From the IMG/VR virus record IMGVR_UViG_2617270941_000006: DNA of 15,145 nt; one strand, 5' to 3'. The notes under the pieces were generated by a model that did not search any database, had not been told where the DNA came from, and was given only the letters and a program-made list of their open reading frames with translations. Position numbers and translations under genes: made by a program. Positions 7,077 to 14,918 of this stretch are shown here, piece after piece. Numbering within the stretch: the stretch's first letter is position 1; each line of letters opens with the position of its first letter. Source of the stretch: a virus (taxonomy: Duplodnaviria > Heunggongvirae > Uroviricota > Caudoviricetes).

Positions 7077-8849
7077 ATGACCATCACCACAGACACCACT
7101 CTTTTACACGACCCGCGTCGTCAGGCGGCGCTGCTGTACTGGCAGGGATTTTCCGTGCCGCAGATTGCCGCCATGTTGCAGATGAAACGCCCGACGGTGC
7201 AGAGCTGGAAACAGCGCGACGGCTGGGACAGCGTTGCCCCCATCAGCCGTGTCGAAATGAGTCTGGAAGCGAGGCTGACCCAGCTCATCATCAAACCGCA
7301 GAAAACCGGCGGTGACTTCAAGGAAATTGACCTGCTCGGACGCCAGATTGAACGACTGGCACGGGTCAACCGTTACAGTCAGACCGGCAACGAGGCAGAC
7401 CTTAATCCGAACGTCGCTAACCGCAACAAGGGCGGGCGTCGCAAACCGAAAAAGAATTTTTTCAGTGACGAGGCCATCGAAAAGCTGGAGCAGATTTTCT
7501 TTGAGCAGTCTTTCGAATATCAGTTGCACTGGTATCGCGCCGGGCTTGAGCACCGCATCCGCGATATCCTGAAATCCCGCCAGATTGGCGCGACGTTTTA
7601 TTTTTCCCGCGAGGCGCTGCTGCGCGCCCTGAAAACCGGTCATAACCAGATTTTTCTGTCGGCCAGTAAAACGCAGGCGTATGTGTTCCGCGAATACATC
7701 ATCGCCTTTGCCCGGTTGGTTGACGTTGACCTGACCGGTGACCCAATTGTCCTGGGCAATAACGGCGCAAAACTGATTTTTCTCGGCACCAACTCCAACA
7801 CCGCGCAGAGCCATAACGGCGACCTGTACGTCGACGAGATTTTCTGGATCCCGAATTTTCAGGTGCTCCGTAAGGTGGCATCAGGTATGGCCTCACAGAG
7901 CCACCTGCGCTCGACCTATTTCTCCACCCCGTCCACGCTGGCGCACGACGCCTACCCGTTCTGGTCGGGTGAACTGTTCAACCGGGGACGCGCCAGCGCC
8001 GCCGAACGCGTGGAAATCGACGTCAGTCATAACGCCCTTGCCGGAGGTCTTCTCTGTGCGGACGGCCAGTGGCGGCAGATTGTCACCATTGAGGACGCCC
8101 TGAAAGGCGGCTGCACGCTGTTCGACATTGAGCAGCTCAAACGCGAAAACAGCGCCGACGATTTTAAAAACCTGTTCATGTGTGAATTTGTTGACGACAA
8201 GGCATCGGTGTTCCCGTTCGAGGAGCTGCAACGCTGCATGGTCGACACGCTGGAAGAATGGGAAGACTATGCGCCGTTTGCCGCCAATCCGTTCGGCTCC
8301 CGCCCGGTATGGATTGGTTACGACCCGTCACACCGTGGCGACAGCGCCGGATGCGTGGTGCTGGCACCGCCGGTGGTGGCCGGTGGAAAATTCAGAATAC
8401 TTGAGCGTCACCAGTGGAAAGGCATGGACTTTGCCACTCAGGCTGAATCCATCCGCAAACTCACCGAAAAATACAACGTCGAATACATCGGTATTGATGC
8501 CACCGGCCTCGGTGTCGGCGTGTTCCAGCTCGTGCGCTCGTTCTATCCCGCCGCGCGCGATATCCGCTACACACCGGAAATGAAAACTGCAATGGTGCTC
8601 AAGGCAAAAGACGTTATCCGCCGTGGCTGTCTGGAATATGACGTCAGCGCCACCGACATCACCAGCTCGTTCATGGCTATCCGCAAGACCATGACCAGCA
8701 GCGGACGCAGCGCCACGTATGAGGCCAGCCGCAGCGAGGAAGCCAGCCACGCCGACCTCGCCTGGGCGACCATGCATGCCCTGTTAAATGAGCCACTCAC
8801 CGCCGGTATCAGCACCCCGCTGACATCCACCATTCTGGAGTTTTACTGA
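7077..8849 (+). CDS. P: P2 gpP-like terminase large (ATPase) subunit, 590 aa
   Basis: Starts at Met 11 of ORF 7047..8849 (MTITTDTTLLHDPRRQAALLYWQGFSVPQIAAMLQMKRPTVQSWKQRDGWDS...), which matches recalled P2 gpP. The TTG at 7047 is treated as an extension. The stop overlaps the Q start (tgatga). Confidence 0.9.
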   Translation: MTITTDTTLLHDPRRQAALLYWQGFSVPQIAAMLQMKRPTVQSWKQRDGWDSVAPISRVEMSLEARLTQLIIKPQKTGGDFKEIDLLGRQIERLARVNRYSQTGNEADLNPNVANRNKGGRRKPKKNFFSDEAIEKLEQIFFEQSFEYQLHWYRAGLEHRIRDILKSRQIGATFYFSREALLRALKTGHNQIFLSASKTQAYVFREYIIAFARLVDVDLTGDPIVLGNNGAKLIFLGTNSNTAQSHNGDLYVDEIFWIPNFQVLRKVASGMASQSHLRSTYFSTPSTLAHDAYPFWSGELFNRGRASAAERVEIDVSHNALAGGLLCADGQWRQIVTIEDALKGGCTLFDIEQLKRENSADDFKNLFMCEFVDDKASVFPFEELQRCMVDTLEEWEDYAPFAANPFGSRPVWIGYDPSHRGDSAGCVVLAPPVVAGGKFRILERHQWKGMDFATQAESIRKLTEKYNVEYIGIDATGLGVGVFQLVRSFYPAARDIRYTPEMKTAMVLKAKDVIRRGCLEYDVSATDITSSFMAIRKTMTSSGRSATYEASRSEEASHADLAWATMHALLNEPLTAGISTPLTSTILEFY

Positions 8850-9467
8850 TGAGCAAGAAAAAAGGGAAAACACCGCAACCTGCGGCAAAAACAATCACCG
8901 CCAGCGCCCCGAAAATGGAGGCATTCACCTTTGGTGAGCCGGTGCCGGTACGGCCTGCCGGAATATCTCAGCGCCCTTAATTCTGCCTGGCTGAATGAGT
9001 CGGCCACGCTGTTCCGCCGCAAGTATTACGAAAACGGCGCTCATGCCGGATATATCATGTACGTCACCGATGCCGTGCAGGATCGCAACGATATCGAAAT
9101 GCTTCGCGAAAACATGGTCAAGTCGAAAGGCCGCAACAACTTTAAAAATCTGTTTCTCTATGCCCCGCAGGGGAAAGCCGACGGCATTAAAATTATCCCG
9201 CTCAGTGAAGTGGCAACGAAGGACGATTTTTTTAATATCAAAAAAGCCAGCGCCGCTGACCTGCTGGACGCACACCGCATCCCCTTTCAGTTGATGGGCG
9301 GCAAGCCGGAGAACGTCGGGTCACTGGGAGATATTGAGAAAGTGGCAAAGGTCTTTGTCCGCAATGAGCTTATCCCGTTACAGGACAGGATCCGCGAGAT
9401 AAACGGCTGGCTCGGTCAGGAGGTCATCCGCTTTAAAAACTACTCACTGGACACTGACAACGGCTGA
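8849..9467 (+). pseudogene. Q: Portal gene Q disrupted by an internal out-of-frame deletion (N-terminal 34 codons, then C-terminal about 172 codons in another frame)
   Basis: ATG at 8849-8851 overlapping the P stop gives MSKKKGKTPQPAAKTITASAPKMEAFTFGEPVPV, then RPAGISQRP and a stop at 8978-8980. The portal C-terminal sequence (YGLPEYLSALNSAWLNESATLFRRKYYENGAHAGYIMYV...DTDNG) is in ORF 8931..9467 in a different frame. The total span is about 206 codons against 344 aa for P2 Q. Junction near 8948-8951. Confidence 0.8.
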
Positions 9468-9636: not shown

Positions 9637-9655
9637 GTGCTTTCCCCGCCTCGCC
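9637..9655. other. P2-type cos site (19-nt cohesive end sequence)
   Basis: gtgctttccccgcctcgcc is the reverse complement of the P2 cohesive end GGCGAGGCGGGGAAAGCAC as I recall it. It lies about 170 nt beyond the end of Q, as expected for the P2 genome end. Sequence from memory, not verified. Confidence 0.6.
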
Positions 9656-9772
9656 CGCCCGCTTAATGGGGCGGTTTTAATGCGGGTGCATAACCACTTC
9701 TTACCCACATCAATTCTGGTCAAGCCAAGCAGTACAGCTTATGATTTCAAGATGCAAACTCATGCAGCAATG

Positions 9773-10966
9773 TTAAATTCTGCATCCATCGGTTTGAAAA
9801 TGTGATCCGTTTTTCGAATTCAAACTCAACTCTGTTTGACTCTTTTGAACATTAATAGTTTTACCAGTAAGGACATCCAAAACCCCTGCAGCAACAGCCT
9901 GCGCCAATTTACAAGGCACAGCATTCCCTATCTGACGCCAAATTGACGAATTTTTCCCCACAAAGACATAATTACTCGGGAATGTTTGAATCAAAAGAGC
10001 CTCATCTATCGTTAGTCGACGTAAACGACTAGGTACATCGTGCATATCTTTTGGCTCACCACCATTCATTAGATGATTATGATAAGTCTCAACATAACTT
10101 GTTGAGCCATCATAAAGGTGTTCTTCATCAATAATTGGTGTCCTATTCCCTCCCATAGAAGCAGCTATAGTTGAAGCATACCCATTCGGGTTAATTGGTC
10201 TTCCCTGCCCGTTAAACATCATTCCCGCGTAAGGTGACTTCCGTAATACTGGCTTAGCAGCATTTGTAATCCTTGCATTACAGACTCTTGAATTGTTTGG
10301 ATTACCCGCTCGCCCTAAAGGCCGAATAATCTCACCAACTGTGGGCGAAAGATATTGGTATTTTTTTATCGCCGCCTCAACTCGTTTCACATCATTTTCG
10401 GAACGAAACCCTATAAAAAACATACGTTCCCTATTCTGAGGAACGCCAAAATCTTTAGAATTCAGCACCAGCAAGGCTGAACGATAGCCTGACTTTTCAG
10501 CCATCTTAAACAGTTCACACCTAACTGGTTCAAATTTGGACAACTGTGCTAAAGCCTTAACATTCTCCATAACAAAGCATTCTGGTTGAATTATATCCAC
10601 CGCCCGCATGAATGACATAACCAGCTTACTACGTGGATCATGAGCGTCCATTTTCCCTGCCACAGAAAATCCTTGGCATGGAGGCCCACCAAAAACACAA
10701 CCTATATTTTTCAGCCCAGACAATTCACTTAGCATCTCATCAATATCACCACAAAAAACAGGTGATTCATGATTAAGCTTAAATGTATCACATGCATCCT
10801 TATCTATATCATTGGCCCAAACTGTTCGGAACCCGGCATTAGAGAAACCGACATCCATCCCTCCTGCCCCAGTAAATAAGCTCACCGCTGAAATTTTGTT
10901 CACTTCTTTAGCACCAATTATTCGATTTTGGAATAAAACCAATGATAGGTAAGGATCGACACACAA
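9773..10966 (-). CDS. DNA (cytosine-5)-methyltransferase, Type II R-M modification subunit (397 aa with the TTG start)
   Basis: ORF track 9773..10966. Conserved m5C-MTase motifs in canonical order: LFTGAGGMDVGF (motif I, AdoMet binding), GGPPCQGFS (motif IV, catalytic Cys), ENV (motif VI), QNRERMFFIG (motif VIII), a variable target-recognition region, and RQIGNAVP (motif X). The TTG start has an AAGGTGA Shine-Dalgarno 4 nt upstream; GTG starts 21 or 27 codons in are alternatives. The region is AT-rich compared with the phage backbone. Confidence 0.85.
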   Translation of the reverse strand: MCVDPYLSLVLFQNRIIGAKEVNKISAVSLFTGAGGMDVGFSNAGFRTVWANDIDKDACDTFKLNHESPVFCGDIDEMLSELSGLKNIGCVFGGPPCQGFSVAGKMDAHDPRSKLVMSFMRAVDIIQPECFVMENVKALAQLSKFEPVRCELFKMAEKSGYRSALLVLNSKDFGVPQNRERMFFIGFRSENDVKRVEAAIKKYQYLSPTVGEIIRPLGRAGNPNNSRVCNARITNAAKPVLRKSPYAGMMFNGQGRPINPNGYASTIAASMGGNRTPIIDEEHLYDGSTSYVETYHNHLMNGGEPKDMHDVPSRLRRLTIDEALLIQTFPSNYVFVGKNSSIWRQIGNAVPCKLAQAVAAGVLDVLTGKTINVQKSQTELSLNSKNGSHFQTDGCRI

Positions 10967-10986
10967 TCAATCACCTTCTAAACCAC

Positions 10987-11256
10987 ATGGCAAAACGACA
11001 ACCAACTATACATGATCATAGATACAGGTGCCTAGTCCAGCTTCTCACCAAACTACGCAAAGAAGCTTCTCTTTCGCAGTCAGAATTGGCCATTTTTCTA
11101 GGATTATCACAATCAGATATATCTAAAATCGAAAGCTTTGAAAGGCGATTAGATGCTTTAGAACTATTTGAATTATTAGAGGTGGTTGCAAGCCGATTAG
11201 GTCTACCAATGGATATCTTACTAAAGGACACCTATGAAAGTATTAGTAAATCATGA
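10987..11256 (+). CDS. XRE-family helix-turn-helix regulator, putative R-M controller (C) protein, 89 aa (104 aa if it starts at the ATG at 10942)
   Basis: Internal Met 16 of ORF 10942..11256. HTH segment LRKEASLSQSELAIFLGLSQSDISKIESFERRLDALELFELLEVVASRLGLPMD follows the pattern of R-M controller proteins. It is divergent from the methyltransferase and its 3' end overlaps the start of the downstream ORF by 23 nt (C-R operon architecture). Start codon choice is uncertain. Confidence 0.65.
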   Translation: MAKRQPTIHDHRYRCLVQLLTKLRKEASLSQSELAIFLGLSQSDISKIESFERRLDALELFELLEVVASRLGLPMDILLKDTYESISKS

Positions 11257-12289
11257 GCAAGCCTATAATGTAATTATAAATGCAATCAACGATGCAAAAA
11301 AATTAACTGATTACAAAACAAATAATCAATGGGTCTCCATTCAAAATGTAATTTTAGGCACCCACCTTACATACAGATATATACTTATTACTGGTTTACT
11401 TGCAAAAGCAACAGACCCTAGAGTAAACCCTCTTGCTTTACAAGCTAATGCCCCCGTAGACGGAGCCTATGATGCAAGAAGTTTATGTCATTCGGTAATA
11501 GTAGGCAAAGTAGAAGGCCCATTTTTAGAGGGTAAGTTAGGCGCATCAAATGAGCCATTTCTAAATAAACCTGCTCGTTACATGCTCCACTCCTCTGATA
11601 ACCCTGTGCGCAGAGGAAATGATAAGGTTTTACAACAACTTTCAATTGATATATTACATGCAGCAACAACCCAAACCTTAGCTTATGAAATGCTTGTTAT
11701 TGCATTATATTTTACCCTACAGCGAACCAATAGAGTTATAACGCCGAACTCAATTAATTTTGATTTCCATAAGATTATTTATAATATTATATCTCATCCT
11801 TGTGATGGAGAAACATGCGCGATTGCTGCCGCAATTTCGTTACATTTATTAGGTGAACAAAGAGGATGGATAATAAAAGCACATCCCGTCAATCAGGCCG
11901 GTAGCTCCTCAAAAGAGATACTGGACATAGATGTATATCATGACGATATAGTTTTCCTTTCTATAGAAGTGAAAGACAAACCATTTAATTATCAAGATGT
12001 TAATCACGCCGTTTCAAAAGCATCTGCATCCGGGATTTCAAAAGTTATCTTCCTTAAAGGGCCAAGAGCAACAAACTTAGATATTGATGAGTCTCTTGCG
12101 ATTGAGAACGCTGCGACAAAAGGTGTTTCACTAAGCTTTAGTGACGTCATGACATTCACAACAACATGTTATGCGTTATCGCCACTATTAAGTAATGACA
12201 GAATAATAGATTTCATAAATAACACTTTAAAAGACATCAGAGCTAAAGATAGCACTATAGAATACATACAATCCATATTTAAAAATTAA
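11234..12289 (+). CDS. Putative Type II restriction endonuclease (351 aa), family unassigned
   Basis: ORF track 11234..12289. ATG preceded by AAAGGA Shine-Dalgarno at 11223-11228, translationally coupled to the HTH gene. Candidate PD-(D/E)xK-like motif around residues 231-247 (LDIDVYHDDIVFLSIEVK, about nt 11924-11974). Function is inferred from genomic context with the m5C-MTase and controller; the ORF itself is solid, the product call is tentative. Confidence 0.55.
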   Translation: MKVLVNHEQAYNVIINAINDAKKLTDYKTNNQWVSIQNVILGTHLTYRYILITGLLAKATDPRVNPLALQANAPVDGAYDARSLCHSVIVGKVEGPFLEGKLGASNEPFLNKPARYMLHSSDNPVRRGNDKVLQQLSIDILHAATTQTLAYEMLVIALYFTLQRTNRVITPNSINFDFHKIIYNIISHPCDGETCAIAAAISLHLLGEQRGWIIKAHPVNQAGSSSKEILDIDVYHDDIVFLSIEVKDKPFNYQDVNHAVSKASASGISKVIFLKGPRATNLDIDESLAIENAATKGVSLSFSDVMTFTTTCYALSPLLSNDRIIDFINNTLKDIRAKDSTIEYIQSIFKN

Positions 12290-12296
12290 TACTCCC

Positions 12297-12331
12297 GGGA
12301 CAATATAGTTCACAACTACGTTGTCCCTTTT
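12297..12331 (+). terminator. Putative rho-independent terminator after the endonuclease gene, in the convergent gap with gene A
   Basis: Inverted repeat gggacaa ... ttgtccc (17-nt loop) followed by tttt, 8 nt after the stop at 12287-12289. The stem is short and the loop long, so this is a weak call. Confidence 0.35.
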
Positions 12332-12382
12332 AAAACAGTCAAGCAATTGCATTATATTAATTATTTACTTTTTATCACAATC

Positions 12383-14653
12383 TCATAATTCATACGCTCT
12401 CCAATCACATATAACAGGATAACTGAAGCTTCTCCCGTCGTAATTTACAGTTGCCCCACGCGCCAGCGCCTCAAGCTCCCATCGCTGCGGCCTGATACCG
12501 TTCTGAGCAAGGTCAACGCGGATACGGGTGATTTGCAATCGTTCAGACCTGGTCAGTCTGGCCGATGGTGCTATTTCATGCGGTTTTAACGGGCTTCCGT
12601 TTCTTTGCTGACGGTTTGGTGTTATCAGGTCGTGTTTTAATGCGCCCCTGAGCGCCCTCACGACCTCCGGGTCATTCCATTCGATAACACCGTCATCAAC
12701 CAGATTAAGCACTGCTGCGGCGTGTTCAGAAGGTGTGGGAGCCGGTAACGAAGTATCACCACTGGTGAGCTTTCCACAGTTATTGACAGGACTCCGAGGC
12801 GCGGCGATGCCGCTTTTTAAAGTCAAAGGCTCAACGACCGGAACTTTCGGCACAATGCGCCAGTCCGTCGTTCTGGTGATATGAATATGACGCGCGCCGA
12901 GATGCGGCGCGTAAATGCCGACCACTCTCTCGACTTCTTCCTCGTACTCGTTAACGTCATCCGACGGGCTACGGGCGACCCTGACAGTCTGACAATCGCG
13001 CGGGACATTTGCCCCGCCCTGCGCGCTGATATACAACGCAAAATCACCACTGTCTGCGGCGGCGCGTGCAGCCTCGACGCGTTCGTCAAACTCATCAGCA
13101 ATGCTGACGCCGCGAGGCAATTTGCGTAGCTCACGGTAAGCCCCCATTGTCGGCAGGCCAACCGTTTTAAATTGCGGAATGCGCCACGTTGACGCCCATG
13201 CGGTAACAGCCGCGGCAGTATCTTTCAGCGGCCTGCCAGTATCGTTATCGAGCTGACCATCCAGTGCATAGCCGTCGATGTTTTTTGAAATGTATTTCGC
13301 GATATATCCCGCAGCACCGCCCCGGTTAAGGTGTTTTGCCTGAAAACGGTTTCGCGCAGCTCCTCTTTCGTCTCCATCCTCTTTGAGCGCGTAGCGACGC
13401 ATGATTTCGATAATCTGGTTACGCTGGCGTGGATTACAAAAAAGCATCATATGCCAGTGCGGCGTTCCGTCGTGGTGTGGCTCGACGACACGCAAACCGT
13501 AGACCTGTAAATCATTATCCTTGAATGCCGTGCGCATCAGGCTCCAGATATGGCAGAGATAACGCTGCGCATCCTTTGGATTAAATGCCTCATCATTCCA
13601 GCCGTGATTTAGCTGGACGGTTTTACTTTCGCCTTTTCCGACCTGACGTGTCGGGTGATACTTTGACGGCGCGGTCAGCGTGATAAACATCCCCACATCA
13701 CCCTCTGCGGCGGCATAACGCTCAATTCCGGCGATGGTGTTCATCAGCTCCATCCGGCGAATTTCAGGATTAGAAATACTGCCCATCACCTTACTGATAA
13801 GGTCGATGCGCTCGCCGGTTTCCCTGTTTTCAAGGTCACACGATTTAAGAAATTCCAGATTTGCCTGGCGGCGTGCACGCACATCACGAATGGCATGTTT
13901 ACTGGCATAAGGAGAACGGTCTTTATTGACCTCCCCGACAGCAATCAGTAACGCCTCATGCCAGCGCATACGCTGGCCTTTAAGCTGATGAGTCCACCAC
14001 TCATCGTTAAACAGACGGGCAATGGCAGAATATGCCTGCCTCGTAGTTATCTGTCCTTTACGGTATTTTTTCCAGTAGAGCGGGGAAATATTGAAAGCAC
14101 GTGCAGCGCCAGCAACATGACCATACAGGTGAGTCTGCGCCTCATCCGTAAACAGCGATTCTTTTTCGCCATGTGCATCAACCCATGCATCGCAGAGTTC
14201 CTCATACATCATGAAAAGCTGCGATGAGATACGGGCGGCAAACTTTTTCAGCTCCTTGTCATTCATCCCCGGCAGGCGCGCATAGTGGTCACGCTCTGCC
14301 AGAAACAGTAACGACTCGTCGGTGTTCATTTCATGGCGCTGATTCACGCGCTCAATGCGCGGCCATAAACGACGCTGAAAAGTGGATGTGAGGAAATAAA
14401 ACCCGTGCACCGGGCTTTTATTGCGCCGGATGTAGTCATAGCGTGAAGTAAACAGCGAGCGCAAAAAGTAAGGCAGGCGGTTAATCGTGGATAAAACACC
14501 TTGCACCTGACGCATCTCGTCACGTGTAAGGGGTCTTTCGCGCCCGACAGCCTCGCGTGGCGCGTTCCATGCATAAGCACCGGTAAACGCCTTACCGGTG
14601 CCTGCGGCAAATGCTGACGGAGGGACAAAACGCCCGGAGGCTTTAACGGCCAT
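12383..14653 (-). CDS. A: P2 gpA-like rolling-circle replication initiator (HUH endonuclease), 756 aa
   Basis: Starts at Met 15 of ORF 12383..14695 (MAVKASGRFVPPSAFAAGTGK...), the P2 gpA N-terminus as I recall it. HUH metal-binding motif (GTPHWHMMLF) and active-site tyrosine motif (GYIAKYISKN). The upstream gene stops at 14643, consistent with this start. The extreme C-terminus is AT-rich and may be chimeric. Confidence 0.9.
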   Translation of the reverse strand: MAVKASGRFVPPSAFAAGTGKAFTGAYAWNAPREAVGRERPLTRDEMRQVQGVLSTINRLPYFLRSLFTSRYDYIRRNKSPVHGFYFLTSTFQRRLWPRIERVNQRHEMNTDESLLFLAERDHYARLPGMNDKELKKFAARISSQLFMMYEELCDAWVDAHGEKESLFTDEAQTHLYGHVAGAARAFNISPLYWKKYRKGQITTRQAYSAIARLFNDEWWTHQLKGQRMRWHEALLIAVGEVNKDRSPYASKHAIRDVRARRQANLEFLKSCDLENRETGERIDLISKVMGSISNPEIRRMELMNTIAGIERYAAAEGDVGMFITLTAPSKYHPTRQVGKGESKTVQLNHGWNDEAFNPKDAQRYLCHIWSLMRTAFKDNDLQVYGLRVVEPHHDGTPHWHMMLFCNPRQRNQIIEIMRRYALKEDGDERGAARNRFQAKHLNRGGAAGYIAKYISKNIDGYALDGQLDNDTGRPLKDTAAAVTAWASTWRIPQFKTVGLPTMGAYRELRKLPRGVSIADEFDERVEAARAAADSGDFALYISAQGGANVPRDCQTVRVARSPSDDVNEYEEEVERVVGIYAPHLGARHIHITRTTDWRIVPKVPVVEPLTLKSGIAAPRSPVNNCGKLTSGDTSLPAPTPSEHAAAVLNLVDDGVIEWNDPEVVRALRGALKHDLITPNRQQRNGSPLKPHEIAPSARLTRSERLQITRIRVDLAQNGIRPQRWELEALARGATVNYDGRSFSYPVICDWRAYEL

Positions 14654-14918
14654 ATGAGCCAAAAGCCTCTGAACAACGCTTGCTGAGTTGCTCAACCTGC
14701 GCGTTTAAATCAGCAAAAGACTTTGCGCTTCCGGTCAGAATATCGTGATGCATCAGGCCGGAAACGAGCTGGCTTAATTTCGGGTAATAACCAACCACCG
14801 CCAGCCATTCCTGACCGGCGTTTTTACCGCTTTCCGCTCTCTTTTTCTCGTGGAGAATAAACTGAAAGCTGTCACTGGTAACGACATAACGTTCGCCAAT
14901 TTCGATACGAATACTCAT
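14643..14918 (-). CDS. P2 early-operon small protein immediately upstream of A (orf83-position homologue), 91 aa, function unknown
   Basis: ORF track 14643..14918. The ATG overlaps the stop of the upstream zinc-finger ORF (tcat at 14915-14918). It sits where the P2 early operon has small ORFs between B and A. The name is by position only. Confidence 0.55.
   Translation of the reverse strand: MSIRIEIGERYVVTSDSFQFILHEKKRAESGKNAGQEWLAVVGYYPKLSQLVSGLMHHDILTGSAKSFADLNAQVEQLSKRCSEAFGSYGR

Follow-up and report, generated by a model that had tools for sequence, protein, structure and literature searches.

The question raised by this locus is where a conserved phage replication gene ends and where the variable cargo next to it begins. 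The window (the whole stretch of DNA that was analysed, 15,145 nucleotides) is a P2-like (Peduovirus) prophage lying in reverse orientation relative to the P2 map. Its cargo, at approximately 9699-12400, adjoins cos, with Q and cos on one side and gene A on the other, and the site is the known gpA-gpQ (old/tin, TO) defence hotspot, recognizable both by its position between A and cos/Q and by the varied content it holds in otherwise near-identical phages. The main features are as follows:

12383..14653, minus strand: gene A, P2-type replication endonuclease, 756 codons plus stop (stop codon 12383-12385).
12290..12382, no strand: AT-rich spacer of 93 nt (GC 0.31) between the convergent genes for A and the restriction endonuclease.
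11234..12289, plus strand: SacI-family restriction endonuclease (REase), predicted from Pfam RE_SacI (E 1.9e-76) and the RefSeq annotation of the FORC_082 prophage locus.
10942..11256, plus strand: small HTH protein, presumably the controller (C), with Pfam HTH_3 (E 1.8e-6).
9773..10966, minus strand: predicted C5 cytosine DNA methyltransferase (MTase), with Pfam DNA_methylase (E 1.4e-66).
9639..9698, no strand: cos cohesive-end sequence and cos-side cargo border, placed by reading the sequence and by the end of identity.

Concerning gene A, the open reading frame as listed reaches a TTG at 14695, and the ATG at 14653 is the start used in P2 and in RefSeq. The product matches Pfam Phage_GPA (PF05840, E 2e-124) over profile positions 1-321 of 321 and is collinear with P2 A as a whole, 730 of 753 residues being identical in BLASTP with no gaps and the alignment ending at WRAY/WPGF. 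The stretches HWH and YIAKYISK, which we take to be the gpA active site, are identical to those of P2. By alignment, position 29892 of P2, where its origin is nicked, corresponds to approximately 12795, within the coding sequence of A and about 410 nt from its stop, the surrounding DNA being 96% identical to P2. The C-terminal coding region thus also holds the cis-acting ori, at which the A protein of the window is predicted to nick (at ~12795). The protein itself is presumably an essential replication initiator that acts in cis.

The cargo is a predicted three-gene M/C/R type II restriction-modification (R-M) system of the SacI family, and an anti-phage defence role is predicted for it from the Pfam R-M domains. 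The putative C gene overlaps the start of the REase frame by 23 nt (11234-11256), and the start region of the methylase (~10942-10966) overlaps the start of the divergent C gene. The FORC_082 prophage locus, the nearest E. coli relative, is 99.5% identical to the window; its methyltransferase (L002 3474-4666) is annotated as two CDS and its portal gene as frameshifted, the methyltransferase frame of the window being intact. Between the REase and A, a hairpin at 12297-12327 (GGGACAA...TTGTCCC; -17.7 kcal/mol, z -4.0) is followed by TTTT on the plus strand. It is probably the REase terminator, as judged from its sequence; the scan for consensus terminators made no call, the loop of the hairpin being too long for the scan rule. 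Since on the opposite strand the hairpin has no U-run, an early transcript through A may run antisense into the REase gene. On the other side of the cargo, 9639-9657 is the reverse complement of GGCGAGGCGGGGAAAGCAC, which we take to be the P2 cos cohesive end, and identity to other P2-like phages ends at approximately 9690-9698. It should be added that the portal gene Q (8849-9467) lacks 412 internal nt when compared with P2 and the FORC_082 prophage, the deletion junction lying at 8948-8951 with a 4-nt overlap. The deletion is not a multiple of three, Q is frameshifted and truncated, and the prophage is therefore probably defective.

The base composition changes within gene A itself. An earlier note on this DNA had placed an abrupt switch to AT-rich sequence in the last codons of A, and this was borne out, both the peptide ending in NYDGRSFSYPVICDWRAYEL before the stop and its coordinates being correct. 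GC content falls from 0.535 at 12400-12599 to 0.275 at 12200-12399. The last 16 codons of A have a GC of 0.354 and a GC3 of 0.25, the remaining 47 blocks of 16 codons averaging 0.535 (sd 0.064) with a minimum of 0.417. Likewise, the last 51 nt (12383-12433; GC 0.353) and the last 67 nt (GC 0.373) lie below all 2170 and all 2138 same-size segments elsewhere in A, respectively. Sliding-window analysis, proposed in that note as a check, found the step inside A, the maximum-likelihood change point being 12453 with a 2-lnL support interval of 12395-12459, within the coding sequence. The GC step is real, lies where it had been said to lie, and is more than chance.

The same note took the step to suggest that cargo DNA supplies the stop codon and the C-terminal residues of A, to be checked by aligning the A C-terminus with that of P2. 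The alignment gives a divided answer, being gapless almost to the stop, against the claim, yet showing a nucleotide breakpoint inside the gene, in its favour. In megablast, P2 and more than 80 other phages cease to match at 12413-12418, P2 A running 49 nt past the point that matches this end. At the protein level, the C-terminus of the window, NYDG RSFSYPVICDWRAY EL and the stop, and that of P2, NYDG KKFTYPVADEWPGF STVMEWT and the stop, stay in register, the gapless alignment reaching to two residues before the stop of the window. For the nucleotide comparison, 80 close A genes of P2-like phages in IMG/VR supplied a consensus, from which the window departs at 9 of the 300 nt upstream of the tail, at 4 of the 57 nt that follow and at 13 of the 33 nt spanning codon R746 through the W codon (12401-12433), i.e. 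a rise from ~3% to 39% at codon R746 (12433).

The divergent part nevertheless keeps the motif F-x-Y-P-V-x-x-x-W-x-x-aromatic, the tail of the window (cf. RSFSYPVICDWRAYEL) having F-S-Y-P-V-I-C-D-W-R-A-Y; the fuller cargo-linked tail peptide at 12392-12449 is T-V-N-Y-D-G-R-S-F-S-Y-P-V-I-C-D-W-R-A-Y. Among 58 distinct A tails, the F is present in 55, the Y in 56, the V in 51 and the W in 54, and the position W+3 is F in 44 and Y in 3, so that the motif positions F, Y, P, V, W and aromatic are conserved in 44-56 of the 58; conservation drops off immediately past the aromatic residue at W+3. When the last 137 residues of A were modelled with AlphaFold (mean pLDDT 75.7), TVNY and RSFS formed a confident β-hairpin and the last 7 residues alone were of low confidence. 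A fold search with this model of the C-terminal domain gave no match at E <1.

Since the frame and the motif are retained and the alignment is gapless, the AT-rich tail is, as judged from sequence, a strongly diverged, homologous allele of A and not arbitrary cargo DNA, only the codons for E and L and the stop being new. The claim of cargo-supplied residues thus stands for E, L and the stop, and falls for the remainder, which is homologous to P2 A. An illegitimate insertion of AT-rich foreign DNA within A, with unrelated cargo encoding the last ~16 residues and the stop, would be in keeping with the end of megablast identity to P2 inside the gene and with a tail GC resembling that of the cargo. 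We consider it unlikely, given that the protein alignment is gapless through WRAY/WPGF, that 20 of the 33 nt at 12401-12433 still agree with the consensus, and that six constrained residues in register are not expected of unrelated DNA. For residues 746-754 the retained motif refutes it; for the final E-L-stop codons it holds, and it probably describes how each tail ending first originated.

If the tail is an allele of A, its distribution should be considered together with that of the cargo. Among 5426 complete E. coli genomes, the 151-nt block 12286-12436 occurs in 20 at 99.3-100% identity, and all 20 carry this R-M cassette. A degenerate DNA pattern for YPVICDW retrieved eight contigs from IMG/VR, seven of them with the cassette and the eighth ending ~100 nt past the tail. 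A comparison of eight carriers revealed 13 R-M-linked alleles, all at 12449-12408. Pairs of carriers show 16-39 SNPs per 900 nt upstream of 12512, none of these SNPs being linked to the cargo; the last SNP among carriers lies at offset -22 (12512) and the first cargo-linked allele at offset +41 (12449). The block 12383-12449 is identical among carriers though their A bodies differ by 2-3%, and, over 1500 nt of the A body, two carriers are no more alike than a carrier and a non-carrier, the nearest A-body neighbour of five of the eight being a non-carrier. Identity among carriers is 99.6-99.9% for cargo and tail versus 96.8-98.1% for the A body. The block 12383-12449 is thus strictly linked to the SacI-family R-M cassette and uncoupled from the A body, and the exchanged block begins between 12450 and 12512, coinciding with the GC change point. 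The view that the cargo border falls inside A is upheld by these linked alleles, which run from 12449 to the stop, as well as by the end of identity described above. Gene A can accordingly be divided as follows:

12513..14653, minus strand: A body, the phage-backbone part unlinked to cargo (carrier SNPs, nearest-neighbour test, identity).
12450..12512, minus strand: crossover zone, where linkage to the cargo begins (carrier SNPs and the GC change point at 12453).
12392..12449, minus strand: cargo-linked, AT-shifted divergent allele of the A C-terminal motif (linked alleles, mismatches, retained residues).
12383..12391, minus strand: Glu-Leu-stop, the only codons of A without a counterpart elsewhere (conservation across the 58 distinct tails).

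The same data bear on an in-place drift of the tail towards AT under relaxed selection, without any recombination. Tails are weakly constrained, and the GC of many of them is below that of the A body; both would suit such a drift. It is hardly credible, however, where a few codons take the mismatch from 3% to 39%, where the identical tail sits on A bodies 2-3% apart that are interleaved with consensus-tail non-carriers, and where graded intermediates are absent among 82 loci and 120 protein fragments.

These 82 loci are close P2-like ones, with near-identical A C-terminal domains (94-99%), and they answered the suggestion that the same junction be sought in prophages carrying different cargo. 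They contain 22 classes of DNA downstream of A, all AT-rich (GC 0.31-0.44) and each with an A tail of its own, i.e. class-specific A endings were found in every one of the 22. P2 itself is included in the pattern, its own last A codons overlapping the start of orf91, and a like pattern was seen in Escherichia albertii, Scandinavium, Kosakonia, Enterobacter and Pseudescherichia. Twelve of the classes follow the consensus nucleotides through the PGF codons; the other ten leave it earlier, at offsets 32-90 that vary even within one class, the class of the window doing so at offset 58 (12432). Overall, the junctions are spread from offset +32 to +99, over the last ~23 conserved codons, and the commonest of them, after F754, is the point at which protein constraint stops. 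Neither direct nor inverted repeats common to the two cargo borders were found. Across the classes, the GC of the tail segment shows no significant correlation with that of the cargo (rho 0.22, p 0.2), so that a tail composition following the cargo is not a general rule. As a separate observation, in the loci L112 (6136-8031), L012, L020, L022 and L024, the A frame is replaced or stopped early, after SPVNNCG or RWELE, with loss of the entire C-terminal domain of ~125 aa; either A can do without this domain or the prophages concerned are defective.

A shared junction in 12 of the 22 classes, together with a cargo always bounded by A and cos, could also be produced by site-specific cassette exchange, a recombinase acting at fixed sites in the 3′ end of A and near cos. 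The title of Nilsson et al. 2004 refers to site-specific recombination. The ten classes that diverge at other offsets, differing even within a class, speak against fixed sites; neither a fixed junction nor a core repeat shared by both borders was seen, the cassette encodes no recombinase, and the common junction after F754 is explained by the end of protein constraint. We therefore hold such an exchange to be highly unlikely. The scattered junctions and the lack of a repeat at the borders favour instead an exchange, homologous or illegitimate, whose end points vary.

The pattern is probably best explained by cassette swapping through homologous recombination at the gpA-gpQ hotspot, with the stub of the A tail carried along. 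The exchanged unit would extend past the stop of A, at least 67 nt and at most ~130 nt into the gene, with one exchange taking place within the conserved body of A and a second at cos or beside it. The last ~22 codons of A would then be an AT-shifted divergent allele that arrived together with the cassette, and the stub would be left over from the phage that last housed the cassette, or from the one where it was first captured. The tail would tolerate such swaps by having few constrained positions (F, Y-P-V, W and the aromatic), the later residues being free, and for this reason each cargo class could come to have its own A ending and stop codon. Both the recombination mechanism and the derivation of the tail allele from a more distant P2-like A gene are what we infer; for the latter, it is the retained motif alone that points to a divergent A allele, no donor having been found.

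Concerning that donor, the degenerate YPVICDW pattern retrieved none from IMG/VR beyond the cassette carriers and the one broken-off contig mentioned above, and no other A tail more than 59% identical in DNA to that of the window was found. The C-terminal protein search yielded fragments of at most 235 aa and could have missed a full-length donor; among these fragments the tail occurred in P0001 and P0008 only. Three tails of similar appearance—SFSYPVI in a fragment from Salmonella arizonae, FSYPIIEDW in P0071 and YPPCCDW in P0014—were rejected, each being at most 59% identical in DNA and lying beside other cargo. The string CD[W/F], shared by the window and L110, was likewise dropped as a signature of R-M-linked tails, P0014 having it beside Rv2179c-like/HIRAN cargo. 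Among the same fragments, six of the gpA C-terminal ones (P0070, P0072, P0080, P0090, P0099 and P0115) are named 'large subunit ribosomal protein L30' by JGI, evidently a misannotation. A further entry, P0048 (235 aa, E. coli, 'phage tail protein', PF06891), matches the C-terminal domain of A with 76% identity across 88% of the query length and may be a chimeric frame or an assembly artefact.

With regard to the age of the cargo, the size of the GC step had been read as a sign of recent acquisition from an AT-rich donor, an argument that does not survive comparison with more distant phages. Two diverged P2-like phages, L110 and L112, contain homologous M-C-R cassettes, placed and oriented as in the window; their terminase and portal (P, Q) are ~82% identical to those of the window, and their A proteins 75-80%. 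In L110 and L112, respectively, identity to the window is 79% and 75% for the MTase, 84% and 74% for the C protein, and 73% and 63% for the REase, and the cassette of L110 has a GC of 0.36-0.42, the same as in the window. As homologous and equally AT-rich cassettes are found in phages ~20-25% apart in protein, low GC is no proof of recency; it is a lasting trait of the cassette family, as of hotspot cargo generally, and not a clock. A recent spread of the cassette over diverged E. coli P2-like backbones is supported on other grounds, namely by a cargo diversity tenfold below that of the backbones. Close DNA relatives of the cassette were not found in the isolated-phage and plasmid collections, which gave nothing beyond 64-70% matches within the methylase gene, and no convincing homology was seen between the REase-A spacers of the window and L110. 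Remoter homologues of the M-C-R cassette (REase 56-60% identical) are present on the viral contigs L113 and L114, with no gpA match nearby, so that the family also occurs at loci without A in the fetched flank.

As far as known systems are concerned, the hotspot between A and cos/Q has already been described (Rousset et al. 2022, PMC9122126; NAR 2026, PMC13586616), and a DNA end at cos together with a second homologous exchange was proposed for it (Rousset et al. 2022, PMC9122126). The window agrees with those descriptions in its AT-rich and highly variable defence content, swapped rapidly between phages with nearly identical cores; it differs in that in both papers A serves as a fixed flank and whole genes bound the cargo, and a search of the text of PMC9122126 and PMC13586616 revealed no mention of an exchanged block that reaches the last codons of A. 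This reach may already have been published in older work on the TO region (Nilsson 2004; Odegrip 2006). The mosaic junctions of tailed (lambdoid) phages show a comparably abrupt change in identity or composition, sometimes inside a tolerant coding region; unlike there, one border is here reused by at least 22 cargo classes, and it lies in the C-terminal tail of the replication initiator. In phage P2 the last 7 codons of A (STVMEWT and the stop) are, as in the window, specific to the cargo class and part of the variable block, but the P2 stop and the start of orf91, which has the same orientation, overlap (ATGA), whereas in the window the REase is convergent and separated by the 93-nt spacer with its hairpin. 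The cassette shares with other C-protein type II R-M systems of the SacI family the M/C/R layout and the domains RE_SacI, DNA_methylase and HTH_3, differing from them in that it sits in a phage hotspot. The junction is thus an ordinary mosaic junction at a known defence hotspot, with no new system or mechanism; the hotspot, its AT-rich cargo and the rapid swapping were already known, and what is added is a small refinement of the border position.

For the P2-like phages, this refinement means that the exchangeable unit of the hotspot begins inside the replication gene and not after it, so that delimiting the cargo at the gene level misses 20-40 codons of linked sequence. It also means that the C-termini of A proteins are unsuitable as backbone markers and that a GC step alone is unable to date an acquisition. 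A bolder reading, which we regard as rather unlikely, is that the last ~25 codons of A form a selection-tolerant 'landing strip' on which each cassette keeps a private stub recording the last P2-like lineage it passed through. Were this true, the stubs would be usable as barcodes for the flow of cassettes between genera, including the P2-like phages of AT-rich hosts, and the tail variants might tune the function of A, in its cis-action or in its interplay with cargo and satellites.
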